Shown here: piece by piece, positions 5,807-26,195 of the stretch | Position numbering within the stretch: position 1 is the stretch's first letter | How the letters are laid out: each line of letters begins with the position of its first letter | Source of the DNA: Microgenomates group bacterium | Lineage (GTDB): Bacteria; Patescibacteriota; Microgenomatia; UBA12405 | DNA: 64,000 bases | NCBI GenBank assembly: GCA_049303675.1 | Contig: JBAQNJ010000001.1 | Location: 199,494-263,493, forward strand | Direction: 5' to 3' | Notes under the pieces: generated by a model | The model's database searches: none | Seen by the model: the letters and a program-made list of their open reading frames with translations, nothing else | Told to the model about the DNA's origin: nothing | Made by a program: the position numbers and the translations under genes

Positions 5807-6373
5807 TTGATGTTAAAATACTTTATGAATCCTGATAAAAAACTCGCCGAATTTATGTCCAAGGTCAAAAATGCCGAAGCAGGCCACGAAATGGATTTAG
5901 CCTCGGGTGAAGACCTCTCTATGGCCGTCATGAATCTTATTGCCATCGAAGAACACATGTTTTTCAACGCCAACAAAACTGGCAAAGTCAAATATTTTGA
6001 ACTTTTGGCTGAAGCCAGAGAAATGCGCAAAGTCCTCATGAAAATGCTTATTCCCAAATACGAAGGCGAGGTCTGGTGCACCAGCAAACATTTACTCGCC
6101 GCCAGTATGCGAGTCATGGAAGTGGGGACCAAGTATCAGACCAAAGGTGATACCAAAACTGCCTATGATTTATTTAAAAAGTCTTATGATCTCTACAATC
6201 TTTTTTGGGCCATCAATCTCGGCATGACCGACAAGGAAAGCCCCCTTTCCTCAAAGGGGGTGTCAGCTTTAGCTGACGGGGGATTTGATAAACCAATCGA
6301 ACTCAAAAAATCCGACATTCTCGGTAAATTCAGTAGTGCCATTGGCAAAATCCTCGACTGTTGTCGTGAATAG
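5807..6373 (+). CDS. hypothetical protein (188 aa)
   Basis: ORF only. Confidence 0.45.
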   Translation: MMLKYFMNPDKKLAEFMSKVKNAEAGHEMDLASGEDLSMAVMNLIAIEEHMFFNANKTGKVKYFELLAEAREMRKVLMKMLIPKYEGEVWCTSKHLLAASMRVMEVGTKYQTKGDTKTAYDLFKKSYDLYNLFWAINLGMTDKESPLSSKGVSALADGGFDKPIELKKSDILGKFSSAIGKILDCCRE

Positions 6374-17366: not shown

Positions 17367-17658
17367 ATTAATCTAATATTACTCTCCCTTCGGCCACAAT
17401 CCAAGGTATTTATTTACTACCACCCCCTCAATTTCCATTCATCCGGCTAATTGTCGCCACGATATCTCTCCACACCAGCCAGTCCATGCCCATTATCGCT
17501 ACCATTATCCATGTTTTCCAATGCCATAATTTATTCACACCCTCTTTATATACCCAAACAATACCCGAAGTCAATAATACAAAATGGATAAATTATAATC
17601 AAATATTTACCGAAATCTCCGCACAAATATATCAAACTGAATTGTTTTTATGTATCCT

Positions 17659-17922
17659 TTACACCTTGACCCAAATATTCTTTAGCTTTTGGAATATGCC
17701 TACTCTCGGTCTCAAAGTGTCTCTGGCCATGTCAGCAGCGAGACCCAGCGCCGCCCTGTCTCCCTGATCATATCTTTTTAACAAATCACTCATCATTTGC
17801 GCCATGTTACAGCCGGGGTTCTCTGACATTTCCCTTTGGATTGCCAGTATTACTGTATTTCTAGCTTGTTCGTCTTTTTCCATCACGCTGTATTTTATCA
17901 AAGTTACCAGTATAATTATCAT
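17659..17922 (-). CDS. hypothetical protein (87 aa)
   Basis: ORF only. Confidence 0.35.
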   Translation of the reverse strand: MIIILVTLIKYSVMEKDEQARNTVILAIQREMSENPGCNMAQMMSDLLKRYDQGDRAALGLAADMARDTLRPRVGIFQKLKNIWVKV

Positions 17923-18177
17923 ATGACCACCAAAAGTAATTCACCAAAATCCGAATCATTCTCTGTCAATGGCGAAGAATTGCTCAAAAAAGTCAAACAG
18001 CTTATTCACGAGGGCAATATTCGCCAAATCAGCATCGAGGACAAATCTGGCAAAACTATTCTCATCTTTCCTCTGACTGTTGGTGTTGTTGGCGCTGTTC
18101 TCGTCCCGCCTCTAGCCGCCATTGGTGCCCTAGCTGCTCTTCTTACCGAATGTACTATCCGAGTCGAGAGAAAATAA
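17923..18177 (+). CDS. DUF4342-like small protein
   Basis: SFSVNGEELLKKVKQLIHEGNIRQISIEDKSGKTILIFPLTVGVVGAVL...AALLTECTIRVER matches the DUF4342 pattern. The start was trimmed to MTTKSN. Confidence 0.55.
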   Translation: MTTKSNSPKSESFSVNGEELLKKVKQLIHEGNIRQISIEDKSGKTILIFPLTVGVVGAVLVPPLAAIGALAALLTECTIRVERK

Positions 18178-18219
18178 TCTCTTAATCTCCACTTAATCCA
18201 ACGGCAGTATAATCAATCA

Positions 18220-19458
18220 ATGAAAAATTTTGTTATCTTTGGTGTCAGTGGTGACCTTTCCCAGAGATACATCTTACCCGCCCTTGGTAATTTAGCTGCT
18301 TCCGGCCATCACTTTAATTATTTTGGGTTTTCTCGCCAATCAGTTGATCAATCAACTATAAATTTCTCTCAAAATATAAAATATTTTACCGGTAACTATG
18401 ACTATCAGGGTCTTTCCAAAATGTCTAAATTTCTTACCCCTGATACTATCTTTTATTTTTCTATCCCTACCAGTTATGAGCTCATTGTCTCCCTTGTTTC
18501 CGGTCTATTACAACATCATTTGATTGGTGATCACACTCGCCTCGTTATTGAAAAACCCTTTGGTACTGATTATCAATCAGCCCAAAAACTCATGGATTAT
18601 CTGACCGCCAGTGTCGGTCAGGATAAGGTTTTTTTGGTTGATCACTACCTTAGCAAAGAATTGGTTCGTAACCTTATCTCTCTTCGTTTTGCCAATCCTA
18701 TTATTCACCAGTTGTGGAACAAAGAGCATATCGCCAGAATCAACATTATTGCTGTTGAATCAGCCGGGATTGGTACCCGCAGCCGATATTATGACCAAAT
18801 TGGCGCTATTCGCGATATGATTCAAAATCATTGTCTCCAGCTCCTCGCCATTTCCACCATGTCCGAGCCAGCCAGCTTTGACCAGTCGTCATTCTCTCTC
18901 GAAAAACTAAAAATTATCAACCATCTCGTCCTCACCCAGAAAATCAAAAAAAACGTCAGTATTGGCCAATATCACGGCTATCTTCAGGAATCAGGAGTGG
19001 ATCCCCAGTCCCTTACTGAGACTCTTGCTCAAATAAGTTTTGAAATTAATCTCCCTCACTGGCGGGGAGTTCCTATCACTATCACCACCGGTAAAAAAAT
19101 GGATCAAAAATTGACTGAAATAAATATTATCTTCAAAAAAGCTAGGTCTCTCAAACTCTGGAAAGAAGCTCATAGTCTCAACCCCAACGTTCTCTCAATT
19201 AATCTCTCCCCCCATGCCGACATTTTTCTGTCCCTAAACTCCAGTTTTCAGCCCCACAATCAGCTTCCTCAGCCACAGAACTTACATCTCGGCAGCCTAT
19301 CAGTTAGCCCCAGCTCCGCCTACGAAAGTGTCATTTTGGATATTCTCCACGGCGTCAACATCAATTCCCCTTCCTTTGCCGAGATAATTGCCCAGTGGAA
19401 AATAGTCGATAAAATAATCCACCTCCCTCATCTCCGAGACAAACTTTTTTATTATTAA
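18220..19458 (+). CDS. zwf: glucose-6-phosphate 1-dehydrogenase (short form)
   Basis: FVIFGVSGDLSQRYILPAL at the N-terminus. VDHYLSKE matches the RIDHYLGKE motif. WNKEHIARINIIAVESAGIGTRSRYYDQIGAIRDMIQNHCLQLLA matches the G6PD pattern. Confidence 0.8.
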   Translation: MKNFVIFGVSGDLSQRYILPALGNLAASGHHFNYFGFSRQSVDQSTINFSQNIKYFTGNYDYQGLSKMSKFLTPDTIFYFSIPTSYELIVSLVSGLLQHHLIGDHTRLVIEKPFGTDYQSAQKLMDYLTASVGQDKVFLVDHYLSKELVRNLISLRFANPIIHQLWNKEHIARINIIAVESAGIGTRSRYYDQIGAIRDMIQNHCLQLLAISTMSEPASFDQSSFSLEKLKIINHLVLTQKIKKNVSIGQYHGYLQESGVDPQSLTETLAQISFEINLPHWRGVPITITTGKKMDQKLTEINIIFKKARSLKLWKEAHSLNPNVLSINLSPHADIFLSLNSSFQPHNQLPQPQNLHLGSLSVSPSSAYESVILDILHGVNINSPSFAEIIAQWKIVDKIIHLPHLRDKLFYY

Positions 19459-19459
19459 C

Positions 19460-19618
19460 TTATTTTTTCTTGGCTTTCCTTGAGGTCTTTTTCTTTACTA
19501 CTTTCTTGACAGTCTTTTTTGGGGGCGTCTTGCAACAATCAGGACCGCAGTCCTCAATTAACCCCAAACTTTTACCTATTTTACAAACAAAACAATTACA
19601 ACATCCACCGTGGTCCAT
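19460..19618 (-). CDS. unannotated 52-aa Cys-rich peptide with a Lys-rich tail, immediately downstream of the histidine kinase
   Basis: Hand translation: MDHGGCCNCFVCKIGKSLGLIEDCGPDCCKTPPKKTVKKVVKKKTSRKAKKK. It has 8 Cys. It is below the 60-aa cutoff of the ORF track. Confidence 0.45.
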   Translation of the reverse strand: MDHGGCCNCFVCKIGKSLGLIEDCGPDCCKTPPKKTVKKVVKKKTSRKAKKK

Positions 19619-19645
19619 AAATATATTTAACAATTAATTAATCCA

Positions 19646-21046
19646 TTAAACCATATTTTCCACACTCAGTGTTACTCTAGTCCCACCAACATATTCCTTA
19701 TCATATTCTATCTTCCATGCGTTTCTTTCGCAGATCTGTTTAACCAGCGACATTCCTACTCCAAACCCCAACACTCTTGACTGGTGTTTTTCACCCCGAG
19801 TAAACCGCTCGAATACTTTACTAAATATTTTTTTATCTATTCCTTCGCCTTGATCACAGACTTCAAATATATACTCTGAGTTTATTCTATTCATAGATAT
19901 TTTTATCTCTCCACTCCTTCGGTTATACTTTATGGCGTTTGAAATCAAGTTTGCCATTGCCAGTTCGAAGCCTACTTTATCACACTTAATCAACACCGTT
20001 GGTTCAATTTCATTCAGGCATTTTAGATTCATCTCTGCAATTTTTATTTCCTGTTCTTTGCAGATCAGGTCGACCACTGTTTTTGGCGAAAAATTTTCTC
20101 TCACAATTTTTACTTCATTACGGTCATATCTTGATAACAGCAATAATTCATCCACCCTACGGGATAATTGCATCAACTCATCTTTTGTTGAATTAATTTT
20201 TTTCCTCTGTATTTCGTCATTTGTATCCAGTTTCAATACCTCCAATGTCGATACTACCCTTGCCAGCGGAGTCTTCAATTCATGCGAAGCATTGGAAATA
20301 AACGACTTTTGTTTTTCCAATCCATCCGCCAGTCTGTCCAGTAGCCGATTATATGCTCTTACCAATATTCCCACTTCATCGTTTTCATTACCCACATAAT
20401 CAATTTTATCTCCCAAATTTTCAATCCCCACCTTCTCCATCGCCTCGACTACATCATCTAGAGATCGGAAAACTATTCCCACCAGTTGGTGCGACAATGG
20501 CCAGCTCAGCAGCATACTCAGTACCAGTATTGTCAATATTAGCCAGCCAGCTATTTCCCCAAAGTGCCCAAAAATTAGCATAGGTGAGGCCAGTATCAGT
20601 TCTCCCACTTGCTTCCCCTCATCCAAAATTGGCACCGACAAAATCATATATTTTTCTCCGGACTTACCTACAAAGTTAGCATACTGAGTTTCCTGACTGT
20701 TCCAGTTGTAGCTAGCCACCTCAGCTTCGTTTTGAAATATGCCATATTTAGCCACTGCCTCATTGCCCCCATCCAAAATTTGGGCAGACATATTTTCATC
20801 CCGCAAGTAAGCGCTCAAGGTTCTCCCTTCATCATCTAATCGGAATTTAATTTCACCCTCTTCAAAAAACAGTCTATTAGTTACCATCTCCTTCGCCACA
20901 CCTTCTAGCCCACTCCTCATTCCCCGACTTGAAAACCAGTAATACCCTCCGGCCAATACCGACATTGATATTACTAGGGTAATCCCAATATACATTAAGA
21001 TATAAATCCACGCTCTAGTTTTTATCGCCAGTGGCGCATATTGCAT
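19646..21046 (-). CDS. sensor histidine kinase (2 TM, HAMP, HisKA, HATPase)
   Basis: H-box SNASHELKTPL. N, G1 and G2 boxes present (NAIKYN, DQGEGI, GFGVGMS). Confidence 0.9.
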   Translation of the reverse strand: MQYAPLAIKTRAWIYILMYIGITLVISMSVLAGGYYWFSSRGMRSGLEGVAKEMVTNRLFFEEGEIKFRLDDEGRTLSAYLRDENMSAQILDGGNEAVAKYGIFQNEAEVASYNWNSQETQYANFVGKSGEKYMILSVPILDEGKQVGELILASPMLIFGHFGEIAGWLILTILVLSMLLSWPLSHQLVGIVFRSLDDVVEAMEKVGIENLGDKIDYVGNENDEVGILVRAYNRLLDRLADGLEKQKSFISNASHELKTPLARVVSTLEVLKLDTNDEIQRKKINSTKDELMQLSRRVDELLLLSRYDRNEVKIVRENFSPKTVVDLICKEQEIKIAEMNLKCLNEIEPTVLIKCDKVGFELAMANLISNAIKYNRRSGEIKISMNRINSEYIFEVCDQGEGIDKKIFSKVFERFTRGEKHQSRVLGFGVGMSLVKQICERNAWKIEYDKEYVGGTRVTLSVENMV

Positions 21047-21698
21047 ATCCTTTACCTTTTATAGTTTTTATTAACTTGTTCTTACTTCCCTTATCTATTT
21101 TATTCCTCAAATAACGAATATGGACATCGACAGTATTGGAAAATATATTAGCATTTTCATCCCAGACATGAGCCAACAGATCAATCCTTGATACCGACTC
21201 ATTAACTCTCACCGCCAAATATTCCAAAAGAGCATATTCCTTAGTAGACAGCACAATTTCCCTGCCCGCCCTTTTTACCGTTCGAATGGCGGTATTAATT
21301 TCCAAGTTATCAATTTTTATAATTGGGCTATTAGCCACTCCGCTTCTCCGTAGAGCCGATCTAATTCTGGCTAGCAATTCCTCACTATCAAATGGTTTAG
21401 TGATATAGTCATCCGCCCCTGCATCCAGACCTTCAATTTTATCCTCAATTTGGCTATTGGCCGTCAACATTATTATTTTAACTTCCTTATTTTCCTTTCT
21501 TATCTCTCGGCATAGATCCATTCCTGACCCATCAGGCAGTTTCCAGTCCAATAGAATTAAATCATAATCAGGTGAAATTAGTTTATCATTAGCTTCCATC
21601 ACATTTTTCGCCGTATCTACCGCATAGCTGAATCGTCGGAGTATCGTGGCAAAATTTTCCAGCAGTGTTGTATCATCCTCGACAAACAATATTCTCAT
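21015..21698 (-). CDS. OmpR-family response regulator
   Basis: Receiver domain (MRILFVEDD...LLDWKLPDGSG...K) plus a winged-helix C-terminus. Confidence 0.9.
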   Translation of the reverse strand: MRILFVEDDTTLLENFATILRRFSYAVDTAKNVMEANDKLISPDYDLILLDWKLPDGSGMDLCREIRKENKEVKIIMLTANSQIEDKIEGLDAGADDYITKPFDSEELLARIRSALRRSGVANSPIIKIDNLEINTAIRTVKRAGREIVLSTKEYALLEYLAVRVNESVSRIDLLAHVWDENANIFSNTVDVHIRYLRNKIDKGSKNKLIKTIKGKGYAICATGDKN

Positions 21699-21711
21699 AT
21701 ATTTTTTTTAA

Positions 21712-21749
21712 TTCTGTTAAATTTTCTTTATTTTTATTTCTGTTAAATT
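21712..21749. promoter_or_regulatory. two exact 12-nt direct repeats (TTCTGTTAAATT) 14 nt apart in the response-regulator upstream region
   Basis: Seen directly at 21712-21723 and 21738-21749. OmpR-family regulators bind direct repeats. Confidence 0.3.
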
Positions 21750-21774
21750 CTTAAATTCAATTAAATTTTATTAT

Positions 21775-22251
21775 TTATATTCTTGTTAACTGATTTAAAA
21801 ATGAATTTGGATGTCGGTTGTGGAAAGTAGCTGACATATCCGCCCCACATTGGAATATGTCTCCCCCCGAATGTTGGTTTCTAAAACTCGTCACATCGTA
21901 TCTCCCCCCATCAATCGTAATAATGCACCGATTGTCTACTACCGGTGCTGTTGTTGGTTGTACCGTTTGAGGTGCACTTGTTGGATTATTTGGTTGTGAA
22001 TTAGGACTTTGTGAAGGCTGGGGTTGGCTAAATATCGCCGCAAACGGATCAGGATTATTTGCCACCACTCTTGATTTAGGCTTGGGTTTTACTGTTGGTA
22101 TTACGGTGGGCACCTCAGTCGGTATTGGAAAATTGGCTACGATTGGTGCAGTTGATATGGGTACGTTTGGCTTTTTCAGCGCCATCACCACTGCTCCCAA
22201 CATTATGAAGTTAAACAGAGCAATTAAAAAGGCAATTTTTATTAGTTTCAT
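21775..22251 (-). CDS. secreted cytochrome b5-like heme-binding domain protein with a Pro-rich linker
   Basis: Signal or TM anchor, a P/T/Q-rich spacer, then CIITIDGGRYDVTSFRNQHSGGDIFQCGADMSATFHNRH. This aligns with the b5 core (VYDLTKFLEEHPGGEEVL..AGGDATE.FEDVGHS) including both His ligands. Confidence 0.65.
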   Translation of the reverse strand: MKLIKIAFLIALFNFIMLGAVVMALKKPNVPISTAPIVANFPIPTEVPTVIPTVKPKPKSRVVANNPDPFAAIFSQPQPSQSPNSQPNNPTSAPQTVQPTTAPVVDNRCIITIDGGRYDVTSFRNQHSGGDIFQCGADMSATFHNRHPNSFLNQLTRI

Positions 22252-23531
22252 TATTTAAAGGCAAAATCTTCAAAAATAATATTGTTACTGTGTACCCCAT
22301 TGGCCCTTAGTTGGGTTACCATACTTTCCATCATCGCCAGTGGTCCACAAATATAAAATCGTTTGTCAGTTATCTTTCCCAGCATTTCCAGCAGAATACT
22401 AACATTGATTCTCGGCTTATTACCCCCAAAGAATCTATAATATTTTAGGTTTAACATCTGTTCCGATAGTACGGTTATTTCATTATCATAGACCGCATCC
22501 TCTACGCTAGCAGCTCCATAAAACATATGAACAGTTCTCGACAAAGGTGTCTGTTTCTCTTTGGCCAACATACTCAAAAACGGAGTCACCCCAATTCCTC
22601 CTCCAATCATCACCACATCACCACTCTTCTCATAATTCTTATAAAACCTCCCATACGGTCCCCACACGCTAGCCATCGTCCCTGTTTTTAATTGCCTTAG
22701 TTTCAAAGTATGATCTCCTAGCGCCTTAATCGAAAATCTAATCTCCTCCGAGTCTGGTCCTGACGAAATCGTGAACGGGTGTTTTTCCGCCAATTCTGGG
22801 ATATCAAAGTTAACAAAAGCAAATTGCCCCGCCCTAAACCTCATTTTGTCTCCAACCGCCGCTAGGTATATTTCCAGAATGTCTCCCATTTTTTTGACTT
22901 CTTTTACTCGATATTTATATTTAGGACCGAGGCCTCCATACAGCACTACCTTATATACAAATGAAAACAATGCCAATCCCAAAAATACAAAAATCCAAAT
23001 CCGAAGTGGCATATATCTCGACACATCACTACTTATCATAAAAATATGTAGTGCCCCCAGTAGTAGTGTCAGTCCCAAAAAGTCATGTGTTTTCAGCCAC
23101 ATATCATAAGGTAATTTAACGACAAAAGTCAGCAACAGTGCCAAAATCATCACATATAATGCCCCCACCCCGAGGTTATAACTCACCGTCGACGATAACC
23201 AATAGTATCTTGCCGCCAATTGATAGTTTGGCAGGGCATCGACAGCCAAAAATAGGGGATGGTTAATTAGCATAATAAATGACAATCCGCCCACAATATG
23301 ATGCGTTTTCATTACTTTATCCATGCCTCCAAACATATATTCCAAAAAGAAAGCCCGACTACTCAAAATGAAGCTCCATGCCAACAGCATCGTTCCCAAA
23401 AGTGAAATCAGTTGAGATGCACTTAGCCATGGCATTTGTCGGATTACTCCGATATCGCTCTTTGACATCACATACAGTCCAGTAGTAGTCATTATGGCTA
23501 GCCATATTAGCCAGTTACCTATATATTTCAT
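22251..23531 (-). CDS. NOX/ferric-reductase (FRE) family flavocytochrome: 6-TM bis-heme domain plus FAD and NAD(P)H-binding domains
   Basis: His pairs in TM helices (HHIVGGLSFIMLINH and HDFLGLTLLLGALH). FAD motif HPFTISSGP. NADPH motif MIGGGIGVTPFLSML. Confidence 0.85.
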   Translation of the reverse strand: MKYIGNWLIWLAIMTTTGLYVMSKSDIGVIRQMPWLSASQLISLLGTMLLAWSFILSSRAFFLEYMFGGMDKVMKTHHIVGGLSFIMLINHPLFLAVDALPNYQLAARYYWLSSTVSYNLGVGALYVMILALLLTFVVKLPYDMWLKTHDFLGLTLLLGALHIFMISSDVSRYMPLRIWIFVFLGLALFSFVYKVVLYGGLGPKYKYRVKEVKKMGDILEIYLAAVGDKMRFRAGQFAFVNFDIPELAEKHPFTISSGPDSEEIRFSIKALGDHTLKLRQLKTGTMASVWGPYGRFYKNYEKSGDVVMIGGGIGVTPFLSMLAKEKQTPLSRTVHMFYGAASVEDAVYDNEITVLSEQMLNLKYYRFFGGNKPRINVSILLEMLGKITDKRFYICGPLAMMESMVTQLRANGVHSNNIIFEDFAFK

Positions 23532-23547
23532 CTATCAATTATATGGC

Positions 23548-24213
23548 TTAATCGTCAATTTCTTCAGATTCAACTTCCCTTCTCTCGCTATTTCTATTCT
23601 CCCGACTTTCATACCTGTCTCTGTTTTCACTATCTTCTCTCTCATCATCGTCATCTTCAAAATCACGAACACTTGACTCATCTTTGGCCCCAGTAGGCTT
23701 GACGGTCGTGGTCGGGATAGCTGTTGGTGTCCTTGTTGGCTCTATACTCGGAGTTACCGTCAAAAAGACAGGTGCAGTTGTTACTGTTGGGGTGATTGCC
23801 CCACCGACTAAGAATTGTTGCATTTTATCTACGTTTGTACCGTACTTAGCTGAATATTTACTGGTCATATCTCCGCCACAGTTAAACAAATCACCATTTT
23901 TCCCTTGACCATTGGGTGTAGTTACATCATATTCTTTTCCAAATAGCGTAATAATACACTTACCACTGGTTTTCTTAGGTTGTTCTACTTCAATTTCGTG
24001 CAGATCAACTGGCGCTGACTCGGGTGTCACAGTTGGTACAGCTTCAGTTAATATTTTTGGTTTCGACATCTCTAATCCACTTTTGGGTATTCTATTTTCT
24101 CCCATTGCTGCCGTTGCTTTTGATGCAGCAATACCCATTGTCCCTACCGAAATACCAGCAGTTAGTAGTAACATTAGCTTAAATCCTAGAGTTGATAATA
24201 GTGATTCGTTCAT
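23548..24213 (-). CDS. secreted b5-like domain paralog lacking both canonical His ligands, with a T/P-rich linker and a poly-acidic C-terminal tail
   Basis: CIITLFGKEYDVTTPNGQGKNGDLFNCGGDMTSKY is the same fold pattern without His. The tail is DFEDDDDEREDSENRDRYESRENRNSERREVESEEIDD. Confidence 0.6.
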   Translation of the reverse strand: MNESLLSTLGFKLMLLLTAGISVGTMGIAASKATAAMGENRIPKSGLEMSKPKILTEAVPTVTPESAPVDLHEIEVEQPKKTSGKCIITLFGKEYDVTTPNGQGKNGDLFNCGGDMTSKYSAKYGTNVDKMQQFLVGGAITPTVTTAPVFLTVTPSIEPTRTPTAIPTTTVKPTGAKDESSVRDFEDDDDEREDSENRDRYESRENRNSERREVESEEIDD

Positions 24214-24270
24214 AATTAGTTAAATTCTAATGGGTCATTGTATCTCAGCCAACATTAAGATTTGATTAAC

Positions 24271-24603
24271 TTATTTAACCAATCTGGCCACAATTGGGTA
24301 TTTTCGTCTAATTATCGCTCCACCGGCTATGTTTAAATCAGTTGTCGAGTCTTTTCCCGCCAAAAAGTTATAAACTGCGCCTTTTTCATAAAATTTTTTG
24401 CCACTAGTCACATCATAAACATTGCCCTCATAGGCCAAATATATTGGCAATTTTGGATCACTTCCATCATGTTTAGACAATTCACTCAAAGTCATTGGTT
24501 TCAAATTTTGATCCACCACCGTCGGTGCTTTTTGAAAAAAGGGCAATTGTTTAGCCAACAAATATGTTCCCATGACCAATCCCAAAGTCAACAAAACCAT
24601 CAA
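24271..24603 (-). CDS. MAPR/PGRMC-like cytochrome b5-type heme/steroid-binding domain protein with an N-terminal TM anchor
   Basis: LSELSKHDGSDPKLPIYLAYEGNVYDVTSGKKFYEKGAVYNFLAGKDSTTDL matches the MAPR pattern (KPI..AV.G.VFDVT.G.KFYGP.GPY..FAGRDASR.L). Confidence 0.6.
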   Translation of the reverse strand: MMVLLTLGLVMGTYLLAKQLPFFQKAPTVVDQNLKPMTLSELSKHDGSDPKLPIYLAYEGNVYDVTSGKKFYEKGAVYNFLAGKDSTTDLNIAGGAIIRRKYPIVARLVK

Positions 24604-24630
24604 CCCACTCTTAATATATTTAATTAATTT

Positions 24631-24658
24631 CGTAATTAGTAATTCGTAATTAGTAATT
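24631..24658. repeat. exact 14-nt tandem duplication (CGTAATTAGTAATT x2) in the cupin/MAPR intergenic space
   Basis: Seen directly. Confidence 0.5.
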
Positions 24659-25055
24659 ATTCTGTCGTTACTCCATCAAATTCAGGACTATTAGTCTCGG
24701 CCTCAGCTTTGGTTGCTCGGACCACCTTGTCTTGATGATGTGCCGGAGAATAAATAGTATACAGTTTTAGCATTTCTGTCTCCGAAGTATTGATCACATT
24801 ATGGTTTGCTCCAGCCGGTACTACAATTGCCGATCCGTTGGTCACCGTATACTCATGGTCATCAATAATTACCTTGCCAAATCCACTCTCAAATCTAAAA
24901 AACTGGTCATTCTCCCTATGGACCTCCATCCCAATTTCTTCTTTTGGTATTAGGTTCATCAATACCAGCTGACTATGTTTACTGGTGTAGAGTACTTGTC
25001 TAAAATTATTATTTTTGATTGTCGCTTCTTCGATGTTTATATTAAATCCATTCAT
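24657..25055 (-). CDS. cupin-domain protein
   Basis: Small beta-barrel pattern with the two cupin motifs (G.EVHRENDQFF...G / PAGANHNV). Confidence 0.6.
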   Translation of the reverse strand: MNGFNINIEEATIKNNNFRQVLYTSKHSQLVLMNLIPKEEIGMEVHRENDQFFRFESGFGKVIIDDHEYTVTNGSAIVVPAGANHNVINTSETEMLKLYTIYSPAHHQDKVVRATKAEAETNSPEFDGVTTE

Positions 25056-25088
25056 ATTACTAGTTATTAGTTAATTGTAACTAACTTA

Positions 25089-25493
25089 TTATAGACCACG
25101 ATTCAAAAAAGTTATGGAAACTTGTAAAATAGTAGCAAATCCAACCCACAGCAAATAAGGGATTTGAATATAAGCAATCCATGACTTAATTGGATAAATA
25201 ACTTGCATCGCCCAAATCAAGGTAGCAAGCACCAATATTATATCCACCATCGCCAAATAGTTGTTTTTCAAACCAAATTGTATCGGTGTAAATATAATAT
25301 TAAATAAAATATTTAGTAAAAAAGGCAACCAAACCACAACAGAAATTTGCTTACTTATAGCCATTTTAAACACATTTCCAAAAGAAATTGCTATCAGTAC
25401 ATAGAGGAATGTCCAGACCGGACCAAACAAAAAAGCAGGCGGAGCCCATGATGGTTTTATCAGTGTCGCATACCAGTTATATGTTGGAGTCAT
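25089..25493 (-). CDS. tspO: TspO/MBR (tryptophan-rich sensory protein, translocator protein) family membrane protein
   Basis: WYATLIKPSWAPPAFLFGPVWTFLYVLI matches the TspO signature (W...L.KP.W.PP...F..VW..LY). Confidence 0.8.
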   Translation of the reverse strand: MTPTYNWYATLIKPSWAPPAFLFGPVWTFLYVLIAISFGNVFKMAISKQISVVVWLPFLLNILFNIIFTPIQFGLKNNYLAMVDIILVLATLIWAMQVIYPIKSWIAYIQIPYLLWVGFATILQVSITFLNRGL

Positions 25494-25568: not shown

Positions 25569-26195
25569 ATGAACAATTCAAAAAGTAATTTATTTCAAAA
25601 TGCCGTTTTACTCGGTAGTGCCCTCATTATTTCCAGTCTGGCTGCGTTTAGCTTAGTCAAAAATATCTCTCGGGTCAATGCTGCTGCCCCCTGTATTATC
25701 ACTGTCTTTGGCCAGCAATACGATGTCGCTCCTCTCCAAACCGGTCATTCAGGTGGCAATATCTTCGTTTGCGGTACTGACATGACTGCATCTTATCAGA
25801 GTATGCACGGTACTGACGTTTCTCGTATCGCCGCTTATCTTATCACCTCCACTCCGACACCTACGGTTACTGTTGCCCCCAGTGTCAGTCCCACCCCCAC
25901 AGTCACTACCACTCCCACCGTTACTCCTACGTCCTCCCCATCGCCCACAGTGGTTCCTTCGGTTAGCCCCACTGCCACACCTTCAGTTATCAAACACGAC
26001 GATGACGATGAAAATGAAATAGAGGATGAACATGAAAACGAAAATGAAGATCACGACAACGATCATGATGACAATGAACACCGTGAACGTCGTGGCGACA
26101 ATCGCTCCGATCGCGGTCAAGAGCACGGTCAAAATGAATTGCATCAAAGTAGCAATTCCCAAATAAAAGCAGACTCAAGTCATGAAGATGACTAA
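25569..26195 (+). CDS. secreted cytochrome b5-like domain protein with a T/P/S-rich linker and a His- and acid-rich C-terminal tail
   Basis: Signal peptide, then CIITVFGQQYDVAPLQTGHSGGNIFVCGTDMTASYQSMHGTD (both His present). The tail is HDDDDENEIEDEHENENEDHDNDHDDNEHRERRGD... Confidence 0.65.
   Translation: MNNSKSNLFQNAVLLGSALIISSLAAFSLVKNISRVNAAAPCIITVFGQQYDVAPLQTGHSGGNIFVCGTDMTASYQSMHGTDVSRIAAYLITSTPTPTVTVAPSVSPTPTVTTTPTVTPTSSPSPTVVPSVSPTATPSVIKHDDDDENEIEDEHENENEDHDNDHDDNEHRERRGDNRSDRGQEHGQNELHQSSNSQIKADSSHEDD

Follow-up and report, generated by a model that had tools for sequence, protein, structure and literature searches.

Among described systems, those closest to the protein treated here are the Fe(Cys)4 proteins desulforedoxin and rubredoxin, the bacterial metallothioneins (SmtA/BmtA and the mycobacterial MymT), the WhiB-like (Wbl) proteins of Actinobacteria, the redox-switch zinc centres of Hsp33 and RsrA, and the retroviral-type zinc knuckles and basic-flanked zinc-finger micro-proteins. 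The protein has 52 residues, is rich in cysteine and histidine, and is encoded at positions 19460-19618 on the minus strand of a 64,000-nucleotide stretch (the window) of contig JBAQNJ010000001.1 from a Microgenomates group bacterium (GenBank assembly GCA_049303675.1). As a small metal-thiolate protein it would be nearest in its working to desulforedoxin/rubredoxin, the metallothioneins and the redox-switch zinc centres, and its poly-Lys form calls to mind the Wbl design or zinc-knuckle nucleic-acid chaperones. Desulforedoxin and rubredoxin are alike in size (about 36-55 residues), in a CxxC motif with a later Cys pair, in their anaerobic hosts and in their proximity to oxidative-stress and NAD(P)H-flavoprotein genes. 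The metallothioneins are likewise small, cytoplasmic and rich in Cys and His, with Cys-to-His exchange among the ligands, and metal buffering tied to oxidative stress is plausible for both. In Wbl proteins a Cys cluster is followed by a basic C-terminal tail and redox sensing is expected; Hsp33 and RsrA couple zinc-thiolate chemistry to thioredoxin-fold partners; and the zinc knuckles combine a mini metal knuckle with a polycationic segment. The window protein is a member of none of these systems, since every family model tested failed, and it represents a previously undescribed family of proteins of 41-84 residues with hardly any members outside one class of Patescibacteria (Microgenomatia).

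Very few redox or metal-handling proteins can be recognised in ultra-small Patescibacteria, whose small proteins mostly lack annotation. The carriers of the present family are one group of ultra-small groundwater bacteria, for which the family offers a tractable entry point, as it combines a ligand-type signature, two evolutionary forms and a reproducible position in thiol-redox islands, and a protein of 45-55 residues can be synthesised or made in E. coli. If the protein were indeed a redox metalloprotein or switch, it would be a new component of the poorly understood oxidative-stress physiology of Patescibacteria.

The source genome is a single contig of 998 kb with 40% G+C, and the features discussed below are listed in Table 1. 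The open reading frame (ORF) runs from an ATG through 52 codons to a TAA stop, and the hand translation given by an earlier reading of the window made from the sequence alone (the sequence-only reading) matches it exactly. That reading had described a cysteine-rich peptide with a poly-lysine tail and eight cysteines; the description stands, but the count does not, since the protein has seven (C6, C7, C9, C12, C24, C28 and C29), along with 14 Lys and 1 Arg. Residues 1-29 read M-x-H-G-x-C-C-N-C-F-V-C-K-I-G-K-S-L-G-L-x3-C-x3-C-C, in which H3 and the seven cysteines are the putative metal ligands.

Table 1. Features at and around the gene of the 52-residue protein (positions within the window).
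Feature	Position	Strand	Basis and remarks
Coding sequence, 52-residue Cys/His-rich protein	19460..19618	-	Stop codon 19460-19462; sequence, orthologues, purifying selection
N-terminal His/Cys domain, residues 1-29	19532..19618	-	Alignments, substitution pattern, AlphaFold2, hhalign
Predicted disordered poly-lysine tail, residues 30-52	19463..19531	-	23 residues with 13 Lys/Arg and no acidic residue
AT-rich spacer of 27 nt and upstream string	19619..19653	-	Read from the sequence; without Shine-Dalgarno sequence
Histidine kinase	19646..21046	-	Pfam HAMP, HisKA, HATPase_c; upstream neighbour, linkage not conserved
zwf (glucose-6-phosphate dehydrogenase)	18220..19458	+	Pfam G6PD_N, G6PD_C; variant with short C-terminus
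DUF4342 gene	17836..18177	+	Pfam; recurrent neighbour, convergent with the peptide gene

Cysteine content by itself lies within chance, as 44 of 3980 mechanically called ORFs of 40-90 residues in the window genome have at least six cysteines (this genome is designated G000, and G, L and P numbers denote the genomes, loci and proteins compared). Conservation is therefore what distinguishes the ORF. Orthologues were found in 10 of the 104 genomes of the taxonomic family (Candidatus Shapirobacteria), namely the window genome, all four other genomes of its genus and five more of the family, and none was detected in 28 genomes from six other families of the order. Weak family-level matches in G080 and G096 (E about 4e-3) were discarded because the motif was absent, and it was also absent from a match in Azospirillaceae (L030, E 4e-4). 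The peptide frame is open in all 15 copies, and each of the other frames contains stops in at least 6 of them. Over the ungapped first 24 codons of the 10 orthologues, columns were variable at 13 first, 8 second and 20 third codon positions, and the pooled proportions of synonymous (pS) and non-synonymous (pN) differences were 0.67 and 0.18, a ratio of 0.26. With 13 sequences, pN/pS was 0.30 in the peptide frame, 0.43 in the antisense frame that shares its third positions and 0.99-1.74 in the other four. Both checks that the sequence-only reading had proposed for the frame, conservation in related genomes and third-position bias, thus gave a positive result, and the ORF is a genuine protein-coding gene.

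The extent of the family was delimited by profile searches. A profile of the N-terminal 32 residues retrieved only four proteins at E < 1e-3 from 1.84 billion representatives, and a whole-genome profile search in a sample of 401 genomes of the class revealed distant relatives in other families. Once these relatives had been included, the 401 class genomes contained 13 robust matches and 2 weak ones, and a phylum sample of 401 genomes gave one match among the 400 other genomes. A combined full-length profile recovered 86 clusters out of 5.8 billion proteins, all within the size range given above, none with a precomputed Pfam domain and none with a name other than 'hypothetical protein' (the label used in Shapirobacteria and Levybacteria records, among others). 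The alignments of the Shapirobacteria type and the distant type were matched to each other by hhalign over 28 columns (probability 97.5%, E 6.9e-12). One alignment row, and one of the loci outside Shapirobacteria, come from an unpublished genome, G197.

Searches against described families and structures were negative within their scopes. Pfam contained no family for P0001, P0002 and P0007, and NCBIfam none for the peptide, at E values up to 10, and scanning the peptide and its relatives with PADLOC produced no match above threshold. Sub-threshold Pfam similarities were seen for the relatives only, to PF13771 (E 0.0075, 16.5-16.9 bits against a cut-off of 29.1) and PF09889 (E 0.097, 12.7-13.1 bits against a cut-off of 26.8). 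Three profiles searched against sequences of the PDB found no match at E up to 10, the best ESM Atlas score was 0.76, among unnamed clusters, and a fold search with the 32-residue model yielded no Foldseek match and no VIA-align chain at Z of at least 2. The listings and abstract openings returned by a literature search contained no description of the family. The family would be cytoplasmic and represents a new one of a known general kind, probably the small metal-thiolate type.

This assignment draws on the pattern of residues that are kept and exchanged. An alignment of 25 N-termini shows no exchange at H3, C9 and C12 and very little at G4 and G19. The 87 motif-bearing sequences have His (57) or Cys (30) at position 6 and Cys (47), Asp (29) or His (11) at position 7. 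Position 24 is Cys, replaced by His in three genome-derived members of one taxonomic family in the 25-sequence alignment, and another Cys follows 3-4 residues later, after which the His-containing form has a conserved His and the Cys form a second, adjacent Cys. In this way each form retains about eight ligand-type residues within about 33 residues (H3, H/C6, C/D/H7, C9, C12, C/H24, C28/29, and H33 or the second Cys). Since the exchanges at these positions take place among Cys, His and Asp, the pattern is that of a metal site and not of disulphide exchange, and we infer a metal site rather than disulphide chemistry for the domain. The proposal of the sequence-only reading that the peptide binds a metal or an Fe-S cluster fits this retention of Cys, His or Asp at ligand-like positions across the 87 members. 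AlphaFold2 predicted a single helix, at residues 9/10-18, which starts at the C9-x2-C12 motif that is invariant across both forms; a complex prediction with two copies and two Zn ions scored 0.02 and returned no verdict. Compared with the metallothioneins, for which neither Pfam nor NCBIfam gave a match, the family has a conserved helix, invariant Gly and Lys, only about eight ligand residues and long charged tails.

The reading that we favour, to which we give an even chance, is that of a cytoplasmic metal-thiolate mini-protein of the thiol-redox/NADPH network, with a polyanion-binding tail in the form found in the window. According to this proposal, the domain of about 33 residues would chelate thiophilic metal, with one or two ions placed at two sites or in a small cluster, and with a short helix starting at C9-x2-C12; Zn2+ would be the most likely metal, and Fe or an Fe-S cluster is possible. 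The domain would act in the NAD(P)H-driven network of thiol redox and oxidant/metal stress, as a metal thiolate sensitive to oxidants or as a metal buffer, which proteins of the thioredoxin fold could reduce again. In the Shapirobacteria lineage, all ligand positions would have become Cys and a poly-Lys tail of 17-29 residues would have been added, which would tether the protein to polyanions, either nucleic acid or an acidic membrane.

The same cysteines also suggest a mini iron protein, with either a rubredoxin/desulforedoxin-like Fe(Cys)4 site or a [4Fe-4S] cluster on C6-x2-C9-x2-C12 plus C24, which would serve as an electron carrier or as a sensor of O2 or oxidants and, in the poly-Lys form, as a WhiB-like redox sensor on nucleic acid. 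Of the 15 Shapirobacteria-type copies, 13 have the CxxCxxC...C spacing, and the numbering of C9, C12, C28 and C29 equals that of Desulfovibrio gigas desulforedoxin. Moreover, the relatives adjoin genes of NAD(P)H flavoproteins and thioredoxin-fold proteins, and the hosts are anaerobes with few other small redox carriers, neither a rubredoxin nor a rubrerythrin having been found in G000. A role as the missing electron donor for rubrerythrin was rejected, as this genome has no rubrerythrin. However, position 6 is predominantly His across the family and is Lys in G004, whose Cys lies at position 5, and the C28-C29 pair, found in 12 of 15 Shapirobacteria-type copies, is missing from the His-containing form. 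No Pfam model for rubredoxin (PF00301), desulforedoxin or Wbl matched at E up to 10; what is predicted after the CxxC is a helix instead of the beta knuckles of rubredoxin; and the family has extra N-terminal His/Cys ligands and, in the window form, an added poly-Lys tail. An iron protein is thus possible but appears clearly less probable than the broader metal-thiolate proposal.

The tail separates the two forms of the family, a Cys-only form with a poly-Lys tail (Shapirobacteria, including the window) and a His-containing form with mixed or acidic tails. A net tail charge of at least +6 was counted in 31 sequences, 29 of them with Cys6, and mixed or acidic tails in 56, of which 55 have His6. 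As the charge split follows position 6, the poly-Lys tail is a lineage-specific addition. Some members of the His form have His-rich tail ends (P0021, P0042, P0064) and others Cys-rich ones (P0050, P0055, P0065, P0067). In the Shapirobacteria type composition is kept and sequence is not, with 17-29 residues, 10-15 Lys/Arg and at most one acidic residue in all 15 copies.

This constant composition would be expected of a nucleic-acid-binding zinc-knuckle protein of the nucleoid, of the ribosome or with RNA-chaperone activity, in which the Cys domain would have no more than a structural role and the tail would be the active part, so that the redox neighbourhood of the relatives would not bear on the poly-Lys form. 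The variable, housekeeping-like contexts of the gene in Shapirobacteria point in the same direction. Against it, the tail is mixed or acidic in most members although the domain is conserved, and HU and bL36 are both present in G000, which rejects the peptide as a replacement of either, and we regard this explanation as unlikely. The ligand spacing differs from that of the zinc knuckles and basic-flanked zinc-finger micro-proteins, and no zinc-finger model, whether of the zinc-ribbon, treble-clef or PHD-like kind, reaches its threshold. A small nucleic-acid-binding factor resembling a zinc ribbon, another option of the sequence-only reading, is conceivable for the poly-Lys form and not for the family as a whole, whose tail is not conserved. 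The Wbl proteins, despite their basic tails, are about twice as long, belong to another phylum and have another Cys spacing than the C-x-C-x2-C-x11-C of the peptide.

The link of the proposed metal-thiolate protein to thiol redox comes from the gene neighbourhoods of the relatives. Within 3 kb of the peptide gene, 11 of the 14 loci outside Shapirobacteria (10 of 13 without the unpublished G197) have a thiol-redox gene, usually only one or two genes away; the types counted were thioredoxin, glutaredoxin or glutaredoxin-like, class-I flavoprotein disulphide reductase and DsbD_TM(-DUF3179) membrane proteins. The three other loci (L054, L056, L057) have no such gene, and a 204-residue gene upstream in L054, compared as a possible relative of the GPI gene upstream in L076, proved unrelated. 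In five genomes of this set, from five families, 5-14 Thioredoxin, Glutaredoxin or Pyr_redox_2 matches occur per 0.9-1.5 Mb, so that 0.03-0.065 would be expected in a random 6-kb span, and all five loci have at least one. In addition, the relative in G407 is fused in frame to a thioredoxin/glutaredoxin-like protein which, in its kin, is encoded next door by a gene of its own. Direct neighbours with a redox link occur in Shapirobacteria too, in the form of zwf, a Bcp peroxiredoxin or a nitroreductase-like gene. The same adjacency to thioredoxin, glutaredoxin and disulphide reductase genes underlies the likeness to Hsp33 and RsrA, which differ in being far larger and in having effector domains, without detectable homology to the family. 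The remark of the sequence-only reading that the redox surroundings are suggestive therefore applies in a wider sense than was intended, since it is the distant relatives that sit in thiol-redox islands.

Such islands are common to several families of the class (L052-L062, L075, L077). Their reductase is a class-I pyridine-nucleotide disulphide oxidoreductase of 449 residues with the active site GGTCLNRGC, which contains its only two cysteines; it has no C-terminal Cys pair and falls below every NCBIfam equivalog cut-off, the nearest being dihydrolipoyl dehydrogenase, mycothione reductase and MerA. The islands often also hold DsrE-like, DUF1684, small C2H2 zinc-finger, FMN-reductase and CRP/MarR genes, and that of G197 has an additional protein with a GDCCVxC domain.

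The peptide gene is associated with genes of glucose-6-phosphate metabolism, and so with NADPH supply, at several loci. In the window its stop codon and that of the convergent zwf are 1 nt apart, which bears out the convergence reported by the sequence-only reading, and the arrangement recurs in G003 and L032. In G553 a glutaredoxin gene lies just upstream of the peptide gene, and zwf and a 6-phosphogluconate-dehydrogenase-like gene lie downstream, whereas in G304 the peptide gene directly follows a gene for a cupin-type glucose-6-phosphate isomerase. In P0008, a protein of 87 residues from a Logan contig, the family motif at residues 2-27 is followed by a match to G6PD_C positions 241-295 (E 4.5e-14), so that the motif is joined in frame to the C-terminal ~55 residues of Zwf; this may be a genuine fusion, what is left after a deletion, or an artefact of assembly. 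The window Zwf itself matches G6PD_C positions 2-265 of 296 and thus does not have the usual C-terminal ~30 positions. The short form, with a match ending at 266-275, was also observed in G003, G007, G024, G041, G043 and G052, and the full form in other genomes.

Several observations weigh against a metal-thiolate protein of the thiol-redox/NADPH network. First, no known fold or family matched, and the AlphaFold2 models reached only moderate confidence, with a pLDDT of 58 for the whole protein and of 74.4 for residues 1-32 with a deeper alignment. Second, the loci from related genomes are not fully independent because of inherited synteny. Third, G000 has no homologue of the island flavoprotein disulphide reductase with the query used, so that the redox-island context is borrowed from distant relatives; one Pyr_redox_2 gene of thioredoxin-reductase size is present. 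Fourth, the contexts in Shapirobacteria vary (ABC-F, MetK, SurA_N-like, DUF4342), which makes for a weak neighbourhood signal there. Finally, 3 of the 10 genomes of the taxonomic family that have the peptide gene also have zwf, as do 16 of the 94 that lack the peptide gene, and a phyletic link between the two genes was rejected for this reason.

A bolder version of the proposal would make the domain a new class of redox metalloprotein of about 30 residues, either a mini-ferredoxin/rubredoxin-like carrier or an Fe-S/Zn oxidant sensor, and the dedicated partner of an uncharacterised, Microgenomatia-specific island of NAD(P)H flavoprotein disulphide reductase and thioredoxin-fold proteins. The Shapirobacteria form would then be an independently invented, WhiB-like switch, all-Cys and poly-Lys, coupling redox or metal state to nucleic acid. 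This version is speculative, and we consider it rather doubtful.

Another explanation starts from the immediate neighbour. The peptide ATG begins 27 nt past the stop codon (19646-19648) of a histidine kinase gene on the same strand, which is preceded by an OmpR-type response regulator gene, and the sequence-only reading had suggested a coupling to this two-component system. The peptide would then be a co-transcribed accessory or output peptide of the pair, modulating the kinase or responding to it; the gene arrangement is also seen in G002 and G003. However, these three genomes, all of one genus, are the only ones with the kinase directly upstream among the 10 of the family, two metagenome contigs nearly identical to G003 being alike. 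In G004, of the same genus, an ABC-F ATPase gene takes its place, and an adjacent kinase is absent from four other genomes of the family and from all 14 loci outside it. Upstream neighbours elsewhere are a divergent SurA_N-like gene (G057, G061, G071) or a same-strand nitroreductase-like gene (G066, L033, L037; it is a direct neighbour in L025, L033 and L037), and the loci of G001 and G019 begin at contig ends. The downstream partners in Shapirobacteria are equally diverse, with zwf (G000, G003, L032), MetK, PIG-L, a kinase-like AAA_33 protein or an SDR, and in G001 a Bcp peroxiredoxin gene follows 4 nt downstream on the same strand. Moreover, TGn..AAT strings upstream of all copies, 24-50 nt ahead of the ATG in the orthologues, hint at a promoter of the gene itself. 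The peptide gene does not form a functional unit with the adjacent kinase; an accessory role is very improbable, and the tempting link to the two-component system is corrected here as unsupported.

As to the start region, the string in the window is TGGTTTAAT (19645-19653, minus strand), which overlaps the kinase stop codon and could be the extended -10 element of the peptide gene. A scan for consensus promoters and terminators found no promoter on the peptide strand and no site for the peptide gene, and an Rfam scan of 17500-22000 gave nothing credible. The Shine-Dalgarno (SD) sequence missing upstream of the window ATG is uninformative, given that an SD core precedes 8% of the long ORFs (at least 200 residues) of G000 against 5% of random positions, and translation initiation in this organism is therefore largely SD-independent. 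The genes of the distant relatives, in other genomes and families, have a strong GGAGG 6-9 nt before the ATG.

The small size, cysteine content and positive charge of the protein also recall the precursor of a ribosomally synthesised and post-translationally modified peptide (RiPP), which the sequence-only reading had listed, or a leaderless, secreted cationic antimicrobial peptide, and genes of a MacB/FtsX-HlyD ABC system are found close by in G019 and G220. Yet no radical-SAM, lanthionine, YcaO or other maturase was found in the Pfam-scanned loci, which covered seven window proteins and then 36, 54 and 15 proteins in related loci, and NCBIfam and PADLOC gave no match. The N-terminus is conserved from residue 1 (Met1-His3) and only the C-terminal tail varies, which leaves no separate leader, and among the relatives the tails are acidic and the redox context is cytoplasmic. 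A RiPP precursor or secreted peptide is hardly credible, the least probable of the explanations weighed here.

Some features of the surroundings are noted in their own right. In many orthologues a hairpin of 4-5 bp with an AU-rich loop of 14-20 nt lies 10-14 nt ahead of the start codon (upstream of L022/L023, at 5951-6003, and of L024-L027, L033 and L037-L039). Its arms vary by lineage (ACCGC/GCGGT, GCCCA/TGGGC, TGTCC/GGACA, TGCTC/GGGCA) and were aligned inconsistently by MAFFT, and it is absent in the window, G001, G004 and G019. This hairpin may be a translational control element or may have arisen by chance.

The DUF4342 gene, which codes for ~85 residues, and the peptide gene converge over a distance of 0-5.5 kb in G000, G002, G003, G019, L038 and L039. 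They adjoin each other in G002 and L038 and are 160 nt apart in L039, and inserted genes separate the two in G000, G003 and G019. No paper on DUF4342 was found among the listings and abstract openings of the literature search.

Farther along on the kinase side lie genes for a Cyt-b5-like protein, a ferric-reductase-like FAD/NAD protein, another Cyt-b5 protein, a cupin and TspO, in agreement with the heme and redox cluster described by the sequence-only reading. This cluster spans 21775-25493 on the minus strand and 25569-26195 on the plus strand, with at least two Cyt-b5-domain proteins and the ferric-reductase-like protein being a membrane protein, and it also encodes two proteins that share the motif Cys-x-I-T-x-F-G-x-x-Y-D-V, Pro/Thr-rich linkers and very acidic tails. 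G002 and G003 share the TspO/cupin/Cyt-b5 cluster with the window genome, and a cupin gene whose product is 54% identical was observed ~800 nt from the peptide gene in the distant genome G393.

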